From the IMG/VR virus record IMGVR_UViG_2695420653_000001: DNA of 5,440 nt; one strand, 5' to 3'. The translations under genes were made by a program, and so were the position numbers. Below, one piece after another: positions 1 through 5,440 of this stretch. The DNA comes from a virus. Lineage: Duplodnaviria > Heunggongvirae > Uroviricota > Caudoviricetes. Positions within the stretch are counted from its first letter, which is position 1; every line of letters begins with the position of its first letter. The notes under the pieces are model-generated. The model was not told the origin of the DNA and searched no databases. It worked only from the letters and a program-made list of their open reading frames with translations.

Positions 1-97
1 CCTGTGGCTTTTCGTCGTACTGTTCCGGCATGTTGTTGGCGATCCGACGCATCTGCTCACGGTCAAAGTTAACCATCTGTGCGGCGATGTTTTTCAT
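1..97 (-). CDS. P: Replication protein P (DnaB helicase loader), N-terminal fragment only; gene continues beyond window start
   Basis: Reverse strand from ATG (rc of 95..97) reads MKNIAAQMVNFDREQMRRIANNMPEQYDEKPQ, recognised as the lambda P N-terminus; ATG overlaps the O stop in an ATGA arrangement (94..97). Confidence 0.9.
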   Translation of the reverse strand, partial: MKNIAAQMVNFDREQMRRIANNMPEQYDEKPQ

Positions 98-993
98 AAA
101 TCCACCCCGTAAATCCAGTCAGTGTTTGTCAGGTCGAGTTTTGGTTTGCTGGCTGTCACGCCTGCCTGTTGCTTGTTACGGTTGATTTCGAGCTGGGTCC
201 ACTTGTCGCGGAGTTTGGCCGGACTCAGCACGTTACCGGACCAGAAGTTGTCCTGGCATGCCCAGCGGAACAGCACGCACATGTCGCGGTGGTTACGTCC
301 GTCACGTTCACGCATCAGGCGGATATCGTTAGCCCACCCTGCAAAATTCGGTTTTCTGGCTGATGGCGCGATGGTTTTCACCATGTCAAACATCCACTCT
401 GCGGCGGTCAGGTCTTCTGCTGTCCCCCACTTGCTGCCGCTCTGAATTGCAGCATCCGGTTTCACCACAGAAAGGTCGTTTTCTGGCTGGTCAGAGGATT
501 CGCCAGAATTCTCTGACGAATAATCTTTTCTTTTTTCTTTTGTAATAGTGTCTTTTGTGTCCCCCTGTTTTGAGGGATAGCAATCCCCCAATTTGAGGGA
601 TGTTTTATCCCTCGTTTTAGGGGATTTTCCCTCGTTTTGAGGGATGCACCATTCTGAGATGTTTTTGTTTGGTCCAAACATGCCGCCTTGCTGCTTGATA
701 ATATTCATTCTGACGAGTTCTAACTTGGCTTCATTGCACCGTTTGACAGGTAACTTTGTAATCTCGCTAAGTTGAGAATCGGTGATTCTGTCCATTGGTT
801 TATTCCACCCATAGGTTTTACGCAGAATGGCAAGCAGCACTTTAAACTGTCGCTTGGTCAGATCTGCGCCCGAATAAGCCTCAAGCAGCATATTTGATAG
901 TCTGGCGTAACCATCATCGAGATCTGCCACATTACGCTCCTGTCCGGCAAAGTTACCTCTGCCGAAGTTGAGTATTTTTGCTGTATTTGTCAT
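94..993 (-). CDS. O: Replication initiator protein O (lambda-type)
   Basis: 299-aa ORF in provided track; MTNTAKILNFGRGNF... to ...TDWIYGVDL matches remembered lambda O; AGGAG Shine-Dalgarno upstream of ATG (rc of ~999..1003); origin iterons embedded mid-gene. Confidence 0.96.
   Translation of the reverse strand: MTNTAKILNFGRGNFAGQERNVADLDDGYARLSNMLLEAYSGADLTKRQFKVLLAILRKTYGWNKPMDRITDSQLSEITKLPVKRCNEAKLELVRMNIIKQQGGMFGPNKNISEWCIPQNEGKSPKTRDKTSLKLGDCYPSKQGDTKDTITKEKRKDYSSENSGESSDQPENDLSVVKPDAAIQSGSKWGTAEDLTAAEWMFDMVKTIAPSARKPNFAGWANDIRLMRERDGRNHRDMCVLFRWACQDNFWSGNVLSPAKLRDKWTQLEINRNKQQAGVTASKPKLDLTNTDWIYGVDL
515..645. other. ori-lambda: AT-rich unwinding region (about 515..560) plus O-binding iterons (561..645), embedded in the O coding sequence
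   Basis: A/T-rich tract aataatcttttcttttttcttttgtaatagtg adjacent to four 18-bp repeats; arrangement and sequence match remembered ori-lambda in reverse complement. Confidence 0.9.
561..645. repeat. Four 18-bp iterons (O protein binding sites), each an imperfect palindrome of form TCCC-N-TTTTGAGGGAT
   Basis: Copies at 561..578 ccccctgttttgagggat, 584..601 tcccccaatttgagggat, 608..625 tccctcgttttaggggat, 628..645 tccctcgttttgagggat. Confidence 0.92.
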
Positions 994-1003
994 AATGACT
1001 CCT
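968..1003 (+). promoter_or_regulatory. Candidate Po promoter for oop RNA (-35 ttgagt 968..973, -10 cataat 991..996, 17-bp spacer)
   Basis: Hexamers read by eye at appropriate distance upstream of the oop 5-prime end; overlaps O start codon region on opposite strand. Confidence 0.5.
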
Positions 1004-1080
1004 GTTGATAGATCCAGTAATGACCTCAGAACTCCATCTGGATTTGTTCAGAACGCTCGGTTGCCGCCGGGCGTTTTTTA
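1004..1080 (+). ncRNA. oop: oop antisense RNA (about 77 nt), complementary to the 3-prime end of cII
   Basis: Sequence gttgatagatccagtaatgacctcagaactccatctggatttgttcagaacgctcggttgccgccgggcgttttttatt matches remembered lambda OOP RNA; ends in an intrinsic terminator. Confidence 0.8.
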
Positions 1081-1319
1081 TTGGTGAGAATCGCAGCAAC
1101 TTGTCGCGCCAATCGAGCCATGTCGTCGTCAACGACACCCCATTCAAGAACAGCAAGCAGCATTGAGAACTTTGGAATCCAGTCCCTCTTCCACCTGCTG
1201 ATCTGCGACTTATCAACTCCCACAGCTTCCGCTGTCTTCTCAGTTCCAAGCATTGCGATTTTGTTAAGCAACGCACTCTCGATTCGTAGAGCCTCGTTGC
1301 GTTTGTTTGCACGAACCAT
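1026..1319 (-). CDS. cII: Transcriptional activator CII (lambda-type), 97 aa
   Basis: Reverse strand ATG at rc of 1317..1319 gives MVRANKRNEALRIESALLNKIAMLGTEKTAEAVGVDKSQISRWKRDWIPKF...; SD AAGGA upstream; the provided ORF (1026..1379) is longer only because of an upstream in-frame ATG. Confidence 0.96.
   Translation of the reverse strand: MVRANKRNEALRIESALLNKIAMLGTEKTAEAVGVDKSQISRWKRDWIPKFSMLLAVLEWGVVDDDMARLARQVAAILTNKKRPAATERSEQIQMEF
1055..1080 (+). terminator. Intrinsic terminator of oop RNA
   Basis: Stem gctcgg (1055..1060) / ccgggc (1067..1072) with 6-nt loop, followed by T6 run 1074..1079. Confidence 0.8.
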
Positions 1320-1336
1320 ATGTAAGTATTTCCTTA
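1297..1336 (+). promoter_or_regulatory. pRE (repressor-establishment promoter) with CII binding site TTGC-N6-TTGC
   Basis: ttgcgtttgtttgc at 1297..1310 on + strand (canonical CII recognition repeat), -10-like aagtat at 1324..1329; lies antisense within the cII 5-prime end as in lambda. Confidence 0.65.
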
Positions 1337-1398
1337 GATAACAATTGATTGAATGTATGCAAATAAATGCATACACCATAGGTGTGGTTTAATTGGAT
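1330..1398 (-). terminator. Approximate tR1 region (Rho-dependent terminator between nutR and cII)
   Basis: Positional inference from lambda organisation; contains palindrome tgtatgcatttatttgcataca; exact termination sites not determinable by eye. Confidence 0.35.
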
Positions 1399-1430
1399 GC
1401 CCTTTTTCAGGGCGGGGATGTGTAAGAGCG
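1399..1430 (-). promoter_or_regulatory. nutR: nutR N-utilisation site: boxA CGCTCTTA (rc of 1423..1430), boxB hairpin GCCCTGAAAAAGGGC (rc of 1399..1413)
   Basis: Reverse strand reads cgctcttacacatccccgccctgaaaaagggc immediately downstream of cro stop. Confidence 0.9.
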
Positions 1431-1438
1431 GGAATGTC

Positions 1439-2791
<1,353 letters not shown>

Positions 2792-2841
2792 TCCCCACCT
2801 CAATCTCAATAACCAAAAAACAAACTATTTTCCGTTTAAAA

Positions 2842-2909
2842 ACAATGGAGTTTGTTTTGCACACCTCTTTTTACAATATTTCTTGTTTACAACATACAAT
2901 CTTTCTTGT
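2842..2909. promoter_or_regulatory. 434-type left operator: OL3 2842..2855, OL2 2873..2886, OL1 2896..2909
   Basis: acaatggagtttgt, acaatatttcttgt, acaatctttcttgt, all ACAA-N6-TTGT 14-mers, immediately upstream of the N leader. Confidence 0.88.
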
Positions 2910-2921
2910 AATTTTAAACCA
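2886..2921 (+). promoter_or_regulatory. pL promoter (candidate -35 tttaca 2886..2891, -10 taattt 2909..2914, transcript start near 2921)
   Basis: Leader beginning atcagcaggacgcactgacc at 2921 matches the remembered 5-prime end of the lambda pL transcript; hexamers overlap OL1/OL2. Confidence 0.65.
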
Positions 2922-2953
2922 TCAGCAGGACGCACTGACCACCATGAAGGTGA

Positions 2954-2984
2954 TGCTCTTAAAAATTAAGCCCTGAAGAAGGGC
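2954..2984 (+). promoter_or_regulatory. nutL: nutL: boxA-like tgctctta (2954..2961) and boxB hairpin gccctgaagaagggc (2970..2984)
   Basis: tgctcttaaaaattaagccctgaagaagggc in the N leader, the same layout as lambda nutL. Confidence 0.88.
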
Positions 2985-3142
2985 AGCATTCAAAGCAGAA
3001 GGCTTTGGGGTGTGTGATACGAAACGAAGCATTGGCCGGAAGTGCGATTCCGGATTAGCTGCCAATGTGCCAATCGCGGGGGGTTTTCGTTCAGGACTAC
3101 AACTGCCACACACCACCAAAGCTAACTGACAGGAGAATCCAG

Positions 3143-3466
3143 ATGGATGCACAAACACGCCGCCGCGAACGTCGCGCAGAGAAACAGGCTCAATGGAAAG
3201 CAGCAAATCCCCTGTTGGTTGGGGTAAGCGCAAAACCAGTTAACCGCCCTATTCTCTCGCTGAATCGCAAACCGAAATCACGAGTAGAAAGCGCACTAAA
3301 TCCGATAGACCTTACAGTGCTGGCTGAATACCACGAACAGATTGAAAGCAACCTGCAACGTATTGAGCGCAAGAATCAGCGCACATGGTACAGCAAGCCT
3401 GGCGAACGCGGCATAACATGCAGTGGACGCCAGAAAATTAAGGGAAAATCGATTCCTCTTACCTAA
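3143..3466 (+). CDS. N: Antitermination protein N (lambda-type), 107 aa
   Basis: ATG 3143 with AGGAG 7 nt upstream; MDAQTRRRERRAEKQAQWKAANPLLVGVSAKPVNRPILSLNRKPKSRVESALNPIDLTVLAEYHEQ... with the arginine-rich boxB-binding motif at the N-terminus; 222-nt leader from pL. Confidence 0.96.
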   Translation: MDAQTRRRERRAEKQAQWKAANPLLVGVSAKPVNRPILSLNRKPKSRVESALNPIDLTVLAEYHEQIESNLQRIERKNQRTWYSKPGERGITCSGRQKIKGKSIPLT

Positions 3467-4021
3467 TTACTTAGATATTGGCCTTGGCTTTATCTCAATA
3501 TTATATGGATCATAGCTGGCAACTAATTCAGTCCAGTAAATATCCTCAATAGGGAATAATATATGCTTCCCGTTCCATCGGGAAAAAGTTTTGTTCAACA
3601 CACCAAGCTCAATCAACTCACTAATGTATGGGAATTGTTTTGATGTAACCACATACTTCCTGCCTTCATTAAGGGCTGCGCACAAAACCATAGATTGCTC
3701 TTCTGTAAGGTTTTGAATTACTGATCGCACTTTATCGTTTTGCATCTTAATGCGTTTTCTTAGCTTAAATCGCTTATATCTGGCGCTGGCAATAGCTGAT
3801 AATCGATGCACATTAATTGCTAGCGAAAATGCAAGAGCAAAGACGAAAACATGCCACACATGAGGAATACCGATTCTCTCATTAACATATTCAGGCCAGT
3901 TATCTGGGCTTAAAAGCAGAAGTCCAACCCAGATAACGATCATATACATGGTTCTCTCCAGAGGTTCATTACTGAACACTCGTCCGAGAATAACGAGTGG
4001 ATCCATTTCTATACTCATCAA
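3467..4021 (-). CDS. sieB: Superinfection exclusion protein SieB-like membrane protein, convergent with N
   Basis: 184-codon ORF whose stop abuts the N stop (cctaatta); two hydrophobic segments (MYMIVIWVGLLLL, VWHVFVFALAFSLAINV); matches remembered lambda sieB; first codon of the track ORF is TTG (rc of 4019..4021), first ATG is rc of 4016..4018, so the true start is ambiguous by one codon. Confidence 0.82.
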   Translation of the reverse strand: MMSIEMDPLVILGRVFSNEPLERTMYMIVIWVGLLLLSPDNWPEYVNERIGIPHVWHVFVFALAFSLAINVHRLSAIASARYKRFKLRKRIKMQNDKVRSVIQNLTEEQSMVLCAALNEGRKYVVTSKQFPYISELIELGVLNKTFSRWNGKHILFPIEDIYWTELVASYDPYNIEIKPRPISK

Positions 4022-4145
4022 ACTGTAGGGGTTGTAATAGTTTATCCGATTTCTCGCTGTAGGGGTACACGAGAACCACCGAGCCTGATGTGGTTAAAAG
4101 ACAGGCACAATCTTTACTACCGCAATCCACTATTTAAGGTGATAT

Positions 4146-4232
4146 ATGGAAGAAGAATTTGAAGAGTTCGAAGAGCATCCTCAGGATGTGATGGAACAAT
4201 ACCAGGACTATCCGTATGACTACGACTATTGA
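4146..4232 (+). CDS. Small acidic protein orf28 (28 aa)
   Basis: ATG 4146 preceded by AGGTGA; MEEEFEEFEEHPQDVMEQYQDYPYDYDY; 3-prime end overlaps the ral start; matches position and size of lambda orf28. Confidence 0.7.
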   Translation: MEEEFEEFEEHPQDVMEQYQDYPYDYDY

Positions 4233-4416
4233 TAAAAATCAATGGTGTGGACAATTCAAGCGATGCAATGGATGCAAGCTGCAATCGGAATGCATGGTTA
4301 AGCCTGAAGAAATGTTTCCTGTAATGGAAGACGGGAAATATGTCGATAAATGGGCAATACGAACGACGGCAATGATTGCCAGAGAACTTGGTAAACAGAA
4401 CAACAAAGCTGCCTGA
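4216..4416 (+). CDS. ral: Restriction alleviation protein Ral (66 aa)
   Basis: MTTTIDKNQWCGQFKRCNGCKLQSECMVKPEEMFPVMEDGKYVDKWAIRTTAMIARELGKQNNKAA recognised as lambda Ral. Confidence 0.9.
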   Translation: MTTTIDKNQWCGQFKRCNGCKLQSECMVKPEEMFPVMEDGKYVDKWAIRTTAMIARELGKQNNKAA

Positions 4417-4552
4417 TAGTGGCCTTTATTTTTGGCATAAATAACAGAATAAACACTGCACTGTGTATTCATTCCAACGAGTGAATACACGGAGCAATGT
4501 CGCTCGTAACTAAACAGGAGCCGACTTGTTCTGATTATTGGAAATCTTCTTT

Positions 4553-4578
4553 GCCCTCCAGTGTGAGGGCGATTTTTT
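4553..4578 (+). terminator. Candidate intrinsic terminator in the pL operon between ral and ea10
   Basis: Stem gccctc (4553..4558) / gagggc (4565..4570), 6-nt loop, then T6 run (4573..4578). Confidence 0.45.
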
Positions 4579-4598
4579 ATCTATGAGGATATGAATAG

Positions 4599-5168
4599 AT
4601 GTCAAACATCAAAAAATACATCATTGATTACGACTGGAAAGCATCAATAGAAATTGAAATCGACCATGACGTAATGACAGAGGAAAAACTTCACCAGATT
4701 AATAATTTCTGGTCAGACTCTGAATACCGACTCAATAAACACGGCTCTGTATTAAATGCTGTATTAATCATGCTGGCGCAACATGCTCTGCTTATAGCAA
4801 TTTCAAGCGACTTAAATGCATATGGTGTTGTGTGTGAGTTCGACTGGAATGATGGAAATGGTCAGGAAGGATGGCCTCCAATGGATGGTAGCGAAGGAAT
4901 AAGAATTACCGATATCGATACATCAGGAATATTTGATTCAGATGATATGACTATCAAAGCCGACTCGAGGCGTTTTTCGTTATGTATAAATAAGGAGCAC
5001 ACCATGCAATATGCCATTGCAGGGTGGCCTGTTGCTGGCTGCCCTTCCGAATCTTTACTTGAACGAATCACCCGTAAATTACGTGACGGATGGAAACGCC
5101 TTATCGACATACTTAATCAGCCAGGAGTCCCAAAAAATGGATCAAACACTTATGGCTATCCAGACTAA
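4599..5168 (+). CDS. ea10: Ea10-like early protein; in this sequence the frame continues without a stop into cIII (189-codon ORF)
   Basis: ATG 4599 with GAGGA 9 nt upstream and in-frame TAG immediately before; MSNIKKYIIDYDWKASIEIEIDHDVMTEEKLHQINNFWSD... recognised as lambda Ea10; no in-frame stop before the cIII stop at 5166..5168. Confidence 0.8.
   Translation: MSNIKKYIIDYDWKASIEIEIDHDVMTEEKLHQINNFWSDSEYRLNKHGSVLNAVLIMLAQHALLIAISSDLNAYGVVCEFDWNDGNGQEGWPPMDGSEGIRITDIDTSGIFDSDDMTIKADSRRFSLCINKEHTMQYAIAGWPVAGCPSESLLERITRKLRDGWKRLIDILNQPGVPKNGSNTYGYPD
5004..5168 (+). CDS. cIII: CIII protein (FtsH/HflB inhibitor stabilising CII), 54 aa
   Basis: ATG 5004 with strong SD TAAGGAG (4991..4997); [54 protein letters not shown] matches remembered lambda CIII. 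Confidence 0.92.
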   Translation: MQYAIAGWPVAGCPSESLLERITRKLRDGWKRLIDILNQPGVPKNGSNTYGYPD

Positions 5169-5388
5169 ATTCACTATCGCCACTTTTATTGGCGATGAAA
5201 AGATGTTTCGTGAGGCCGTCGACGCTTATAAAAAATGGATATTAATACTGAAACTGAGATCAAGCAAAAGCATTCACTACCCCCCCCTTCCCTGTTTTCC
5301 TAATCAGCCCGGCATTTCGCGGGCGATATTTTCACAGCTATTTCAGGAGTTCAGCCATGAACGCTTATTACATTCAGGATCGTCTTGA
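5137..5388 (+). CDS. kil: Kil (host cell-division inhibitor) homolog; ORF here is 83 codons because the position of the expected stop reads TAC
   Basis: ATG 5137 overlapping the cIII 3-prime end; [47 protein letters not shown] then continues YPPLPCF...; lambda Kil as I recall is 47 aa, which would end at 5280. Confidence 0.75.
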
Positions 5389-5440
5389 GGCTCAGAGCTG
5401 GGCGCGTCACTACCAGCAGATCGCCCGTGAAGAGAAAGAG
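5357..5440 (+). CDS. gam: Gam (RecBCD inhibitor), N-terminal part of the short form; continues past window end
   Basis: ATG 5357 gives [28 protein letters not shown], the remembered start of the 98-aa Gam short form; the long-form ATG at 5235 is in a different frame here and hits a stop at 5301..5303. Confidence 0.8.

Follow-up and report, generated by a model that had tools for sequence, protein, structure and literature searches.

The window and its closest relatives

The window is the whole stretch of 5,440 nucleotides analysed here (IMG/VR record IMGVR_UViG_2695420653_000001). The gene order on its plus strand is that of the leftward early region of a lambdoid phage, with the following genes around the locus of interest.

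Minus strand: O and cII
Plus strand, in this order: 434-type cro and cI, N, ral, ea10, cIII, kil and the start of gam
Minus strand, between N and ral: sieB
1758–2390: cI of the 434-type immunity region, 210 aa

The N and O genes are lambda-type and lie beside the 434-type immunity region. The STEC711 prophage (NZ_CP041416 3135386–3147646; L005), an imm434-type prophage of a goat isolate of E. coli that sits at the lambda attachment site and adjoins ybhC, has 0 mismatches to positions 1–4962 of the window over 4,962 bp. Three other loci from other E. coli and metagenome assemblies (L010, L011 and L014) are the same as the window on either side of a junction between positions 4962 and 4963 over the covered stretch 2173–5440, and this junction is the sole difference. 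Such identity to natural prophages outside the junction argues for a generally accurate sequence and a natural lineage. The closest record in the phage collection that spans the whole window is Chlobot (PP925838), with about 99.3% identity outside a 36-bp gap. Laboratory lambda imm434 or a vector has been rejected as the source, because there are 76 differences from OM418626 besides the 36-bp gap, and the wild prophages identical to the window provide further evidence against it. Judging from these comparisons of sequence, the source is a wild imm434-type lambdoid phage or prophage of E. coli.

The fused ea10–cIII frame

An initial annotation, made from the letters alone, described a single ORF of 189 codons running from the ATG at 4599 to the cIII stop codon at 5166–5168. 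The ORF listing contains this frame, and the XhoI site, the cIII Shine–Dalgarno (SD) sequence, the cIII start codon and the stop codon all lie in the window where that annotation placed them.

4551–4578: strong intrinsic terminator TTGCCCTCCAGTGTGAGGGCGA with T-run, between ral and ea10, intact (tL2a)
4585–4601, plus strand: ea10 ribosome-binding site GAGGA (4585–4589) and start codon ATG (4599), from the sequence
4599–5168, plus strand: fused frame of 189 codons in the ORF listing, Ea10–linker–CIII, predicted 21.4 kDa
4599–4961, plus strand: Ea10 codons 1–121 (DUF2528), protein identical to lambda Ea10
4962–4963, plus strand: deletion junction G/A, from the alignments and from comparison with the STEC711 prophage and L007–L014
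4962–5003, plus strand: linker DSRRFSLCINKEHT, 14 codons, the former cIII 5' leader, now translated
4963–4980, plus strand: hairpin remnant, consisting of the 3' arm GAGGCGTT and a T-run, which no longer scores as a terminator
4964–4969: XhoI site CTCGAG, inside the linker
4991–5049, plus strand: lambda cIII thermoregulator RNA (Rfam RF01804), 88.5 bits against a gathering score of 50, model positions 1–59 of 59
4992–4997: cIII SD sequence AAGGAG, inside the linker
5004–5168, plus strand: cIII coding sequence, 54 codons plus stop codon (5166–5168), in frame with ea10

In the alignment, the ATG at 4599 coincides with the lambda ea10 start at 33904. The product consists, in order, of residues 1–121 of Ea10, a D at residue 122 in place of A or V, SRRFSLCINKEHT translated from the former leader, and residues 1–54 of CIII, with RFSLCINK and EHTMQYAIAGWPVAGCPSESLLER as the junction peptides. 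A Pfam search of the fused product matches both DUF2528 and Lambda_CIII. Since two real genes are joined in frame, the long ORF is not a product of chance. An AlphaFold2 (AF2) model of the fusion shows three parts, namely an Ea10 domain, a disordered linker and a CIII helix, and the linker residues 125–151 have no predicted structure (pLDDT <50). The model suggests that the fusion is made of two independent modules.

The Ea10 module matches PF10800 (DUF2528) over residues 16–119 with 159.7 bits against a cut-off of 22, covering the whole profile, and is modelled confidently, with a pLDDT of about 90 over residues 1–110. Ea10 homologues (n = 92) are mostly 104–131 aa long and none of the 92 contains CIII; in the window, Ea10 does not end with its own stop codon as a stand-alone protein of about 120–125 aa, and 67 further codons follow. 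A Foldseek search of the Ea10 domain model against PDB structures gave no significant match (best E = 3). Old annotations of Ea10 carry the name 'ssb', and nothing in this analysis supports a known fold or a known function. Ea10 is an abundantly made pL protein (PMC3961180).

The CIII module matches PF02061 with 102 bits against a cut-off of 25.7, and 54 of its 54 residues are identical to lambda CIII. The AF2 model places a helix at fusion residues 151–172, corresponding to CIII residues 16–37, with a confidence over the CIII part of only 55–65. RF01804, the Rfam model that serves here to delimit the cIII control region, is matched at full length, indicating that the cis-control element of cIII translation is intact. 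This element now lies wholly within the ORF starting at 4599 and not in an untranslated leader. As had been noted at the outset, cIII keeps its own SD sequence; both AAGGAG at 4992–4997 and the ATG at 5004 are as in lambda.

The 36-bp deletion

From lambda coordinates, the initial annotation proposed that 36 bp (12 codons) are absent in frame from the window and that this absence removes the ea10 stop codon. These coordinates agree with the records: NC_001416 gives ea10 at 33536–33904 and cIII at 33299–33463, with the starts of kil at 33330, gam at 33232 and ral at 34287; the N start at 35360 agrees with the OM418626 annotation of lambda imm434, and the XhoI site at 33498 with the position of CTCGAG in the NC_001416 locus. 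Likewise, the distance from the ea10 start to the cIII start is 405 bp in the window and 441 bp in lambda. The alignment to lambda that it called for contains exactly one 36-bp gap, and the size, place and effect of the absence are as proposed. In a multiple alignment with lambda, Chlobot and two E. coli prophages, the single 36-bp gap in the window falls between 4962 and 4963.

The absent bases read CCTGAGTGCGGTTTTACCGCATACCAATAACGCTTC in lambda. They comprise the last two bases of ea10 codon 122 followed by the TGA stop codon, a small hairpin GCGG..CCGC, and AACGCTTC, which is the 5' arm of a terminator-like hairpin; when folded, the missing segment thus forms one stable hairpin and half of another. 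In lambda (NC_001416 33463–33538), ea10 and cIII share one frame with a lone TGA between them and no further stop codon. Since the ea10 TGA lies inside the missing segment and no other in-frame stop codon precedes the cIII ATG, the 36-bp loss suffices for the fusion. The lambda frame is thus not itself open into cIII at the same length, a finding that would have contradicted the proposal, because lambda ea10 ends at this TGA. Programmed read-through of a conserved UGA has been rejected, as the relatives end ea10 with either TGA or TAA.

Terminators in and upstream of the spacer

A terminator scan identifies in lambda a terminator at 33512–33493, with an 8-pair stem AACGCTTCACTCGAGGCGTT followed by TTTCGTT. 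The same scan of the window finds no site at the ea10–cIII spacer, because the 5' arm is lost; the hairpin remnant folds to a 3-bp stem only. We take the spacer terminator of lambda (near 33494) to be tL2b of the tL2 cluster in the pL operon; the tL2 terminators were reportedly described by Luk and Szybalski in 1983 and by Daniels et al. in 1983, and a search of the literature on tL2b found nothing useful. N-modified transcription from pL ignores such terminators, and so the loss of the spacer terminator should matter only for N-independent transcription.

The Hfq-dependent lambda sRNA PreS/LPR1 has its 3' end at the upstream terminator tL2a (bioRxiv 2024.10.31.621285). Loss of this sRNA has been rejected as an effect of the deletion, because the sRNA lies between ral and ea10 and its terminator at 4551–4578 is intact.

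The kil allele downstream

The kil gene of the window (5137–5388) has lost its stop codon at 5278–5290, where lambda reads CACTAACCCCCTTT and the window reads CACTACCCCCCCCTTCCC. As a result, the Kil frame of the window encodes 83 aa where lambda encodes 47 aa, and it extends past the gam start at 5357. Unlike the ea10 deletion, this allele is common, with an identical 83-aa product recorded in at least 57 blocks of assemblies. The kil gene of STEC711, a RefSeq pseudogene, is a near-identical stop-loss variant with C9T in place of the C8TT of the window. Disruption of the kil stop codon abolishes Kil activity (Haeusser et al. 2014), and kil is dispensable for plaque formation, as are ea10 and cIII (PMC10695390).

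Rarity of the junction

A 40-mer centred on the junction, which seeds a megablast match only where the junction itself exists, has no match in 5,426 complete E. coli genomes or 50,697 phage records, and a junction 30-mer has none in IMG/VR, the GTDB species representatives or the JGI metagenome contigs. At the protein level, the exact 189-aa product has no record among 153 billion gene positions, DUF2528 and CIII do not occur together in one protein among about 5.8 billion protein clusters, and no homologue of the fused protein exceeds 72% query coverage or carries both Pfam domains. The alignments of the best matches listed are all split in two by 36 (once 35) additional bases, both among the phages, with 195 records at a query coverage of at least 80%, and among the E. 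coli genomes, with 1,362 such records. In wild imm434-type relatives the 36 bp are present, with Ea10 (122 aa) and CIII (54 aa) as two separate proteins, and the eight loci that carry the unusual kil allele of the window all (8/8) have a separate 122-aa Ea10 and 54-aa CIII.

Since the junction and its product are unmatched in all collections searched, the fusion allele is, as far as these collections reach, private to the source of the window. Besides a real deletion and an artefact, the initial annotation offered natural lambdoid variation as an explanation. In the sense of a shared polymorphism, this is excluded for the searched collections, because every relative carries the 36 bp and none carries the junction.

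One ENA protein (P0048, 191 aa) has likewise lost the ea10 stop codon and reads in the same frame into the cIII leader, with the stop codon lost by a point change (TGA>TGG) in P0048 and by a deletion in the window. Its contig is only 1,153 bp long and its CIII part is frameshifted, and so P0048 is probably a noisy sequence. The case illustrates that ea10 and cIII are kept apart by one stop codon, any loss of which fuses the genes. In another lambdoid lineage, a Logan contig encodes a 107-aa protein (P0087) in which a CIII homologue forms the C-terminal part of a longer ORF, with 60 unrelated N-terminal residues in frame upstream of it. This layout could be due to the start chosen by the gene caller or to another in-frame upstream ORF.

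Origin of the deletion

The best explanation, which we regard as likely, is that a private 36-bp deletion occurred in frame at the ea10/cIII boundary as a neutral or mildly consequential one-off and not as an evolved feature. At the ends of the deletion, GCCG-TCTGAG...GCTTC-TCTCGAG is the sequence of the closest relatives and GCCGACTCGAG that of the window. Joining the TCT repeats of these relatives by a deletion would yield GCCGTCTCGAG, unlike the sequence of the window; the junction has no microhomology, and position 4963 shows a T>A change relative to the closest relatives. These features leave two possibilities, either a complex event combining the deletion with T>A or a deletion in an unsampled parent with ACTCGAG. 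The ACTCGAG allele is common, being present in lambda, Chlobot, L007 and a prophage of a pig isolate. Slippage between ACT repeats of a hypothetical parent GCCGACTGAG has been rejected, as no such parent is present in complete E. coli genomes (best match 99%) or in IMG/VR.

An assembly, sequencing or cloning artefact is an unlikely but serious alternative. It supposes that the source has the 36 bp and that a polymerase or an assembler skipped the hairpin-rich spacer, and it is in agreement with an allele that is matched nowhere else and with a missing segment made of one hairpin and half of another, structures that are prone to skipping. In addition, the differences from STEC711 are clustered in the last 480 bp or so, and one of them falls in a C8 homopolymer. 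However, the rest of the window, including the C8TT run, is base-perfect against independent assemblies, which argues against a generally error-prone sequence. Furthermore, a clean loss of 36 bp is atypical of short-read or homopolymer error, and the loss is in frame with both flanks intact.

The same clustering bears on a second alternative. The only substitutions relative to the STEC711 prophage are at 4963 and 5288, both to the right of the deletion and both in the lambda state, so that 0 of 4,962 positions differ on the left and 2 of 477 on the right (Fisher p = 0.008); one of these two differences is removed by L010, L011 and L014. The two substitutions could indicate that a recombination boundary lies at the junction or close to it. 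In an illegitimate recombination, an imm434/STEC711-type phage would have contributed the left side and a phage with the ACTCGAG allele the right side, joined 36 bp out of register. The left side is indeed that of the STEC711-type prophages, whose right side reads TCTCGAG where the window has A at 4963, and positions 4963–5440 are identical (478/478) to the phage L007, whose immunity region differs. However, L009–L014 are equally identical from 4964 on (477/477), and so the whole argument comes down to one base. A simple deletion in a parent with the common A allele fits equally well, and the joint has no microhomology. We therefore consider such a recombination very improbable.

The least probable alternative, which we also consider very improbable, is a selected innovation that put an FtsH inhibitor under the strong, unregulated translation signals of ea10 and so produced a lysogeny-biased phage: the loss is in frame with both modules intact, CIII tolerates fusion and the dose of CIII controls the lysis–lysogeny decision, but one-third of random deletions are expected to be in frame, the allele is a singleton among thousands of relatives, and the DUF2528–CIII architecture occurs 0 times in 5.8 billion protein clusters.

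Proposed consequences of the fusion

If the private deletion is real, ribosomes that start at ea10 during transcription from pL would read through the 14 former leader codons into cIII. The product of this read-on would be a protein of 21.4 kDa in which a disordered linker connects a folded Ea10 domain to the amphipathic helix of CIII. Internal initiation at the cIII ATG at 5004 could still yield the free 54-aa CIII protein, and the upstream ribosomes could either aid this initiation, if they open the closed structure, or hinder it, if they block the site. Because elongating ribosomes would now cross the thermosensor, its control would be at least partly bypassed in the fusion allele. RNase III controls cIII initiation, and this control would also be bypassed by the fusion.

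The activity of CIII requires residues 14–37, which are also sufficient for it (Kobiler et al. 2007, PMC1838920). In addition, His6-CIII inhibits FtsH in vitro, and CIII–GFP retains FtsH-dependent toxicity (PMC1838920). Since residues 14–37 are sufficient and both of these constructs are active, the fusion would probably still inhibit FtsH. A 3-fold increase in CIII translation strongly favours lysogeny, and overproduction of CIII is bacteriostatic (PMC1838920). Because Ea10 is abundantly made, the fusion could supply more CIII activity, and this would tilt the phage toward lysogeny and make induction more toxic. It seems improbable, however, that the deletion is real and also that an abundant fusion acts as an FtsH inhibitor escaping both thermosensor and RNase III control in a lysogeny-biased natural phage. 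If this were true, the fusion would provide a 'Rosetta-stone' hint that the uncharacterised Ea10 protein belongs to the same FtsH/CII pathway as CIII.

The pL promoter is repressed in the lysogen. Since pL is silent there and ea10 and cIII are dispensable, the change would be tolerated and is likely to be neutral or mild, and its single occurrence provides no evidence of selection. The fusion allele is of little importance, since it is one isolated allele, not recorded before, and affects two lambda genes that are both dispensable. If real, it is a natural construct for asking whether CIII still functions with a large partner attached at its N terminus, and it would present a lysis–lysogeny decision in which cIII is driven from the strong ea10 start, bypassing its own site controlled by temperature and structure. 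Because a single stop codon separates the lambda ea10 and cIII frames, gene callers and annotators should expect occasional fused gene calls at ea10/cIII.

Comparison with known systems

The genes, their order and their strand in the lambda ea10–cIII interval (NC_001416 33299–33904) and in imm434-type prophages are as in the window. The STEC711-type prophages have DNA flanks identical to those of the window, whereas the window alone lacks the 36 bp and fuses ea10 and cIII.

The tor mutations of lambda are point changes that shift the structure of cIII mRNA. One named allele that overproduces cIII is tor864 (bioRxiv 2024.10.31.621285). The direction of the phenotype could agree between tor864-type alleles and the window allele, namely more CIII activity and a bias toward lysogeny. 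Unlike the tor mutations, the window allele leaves the cIII mRNA structure intact and adds translation from upstream.

As in the engineered His6-CIII and CIII–GFP proteins, CIII is joined in the window fusion to another polypeptide with its amphipathic helix 14–37 intact. In contrast to these constructs, the partner in the window is a 135-residue N-terminal segment of Ea10 plus linker that would have arisen from a spontaneous deletion.
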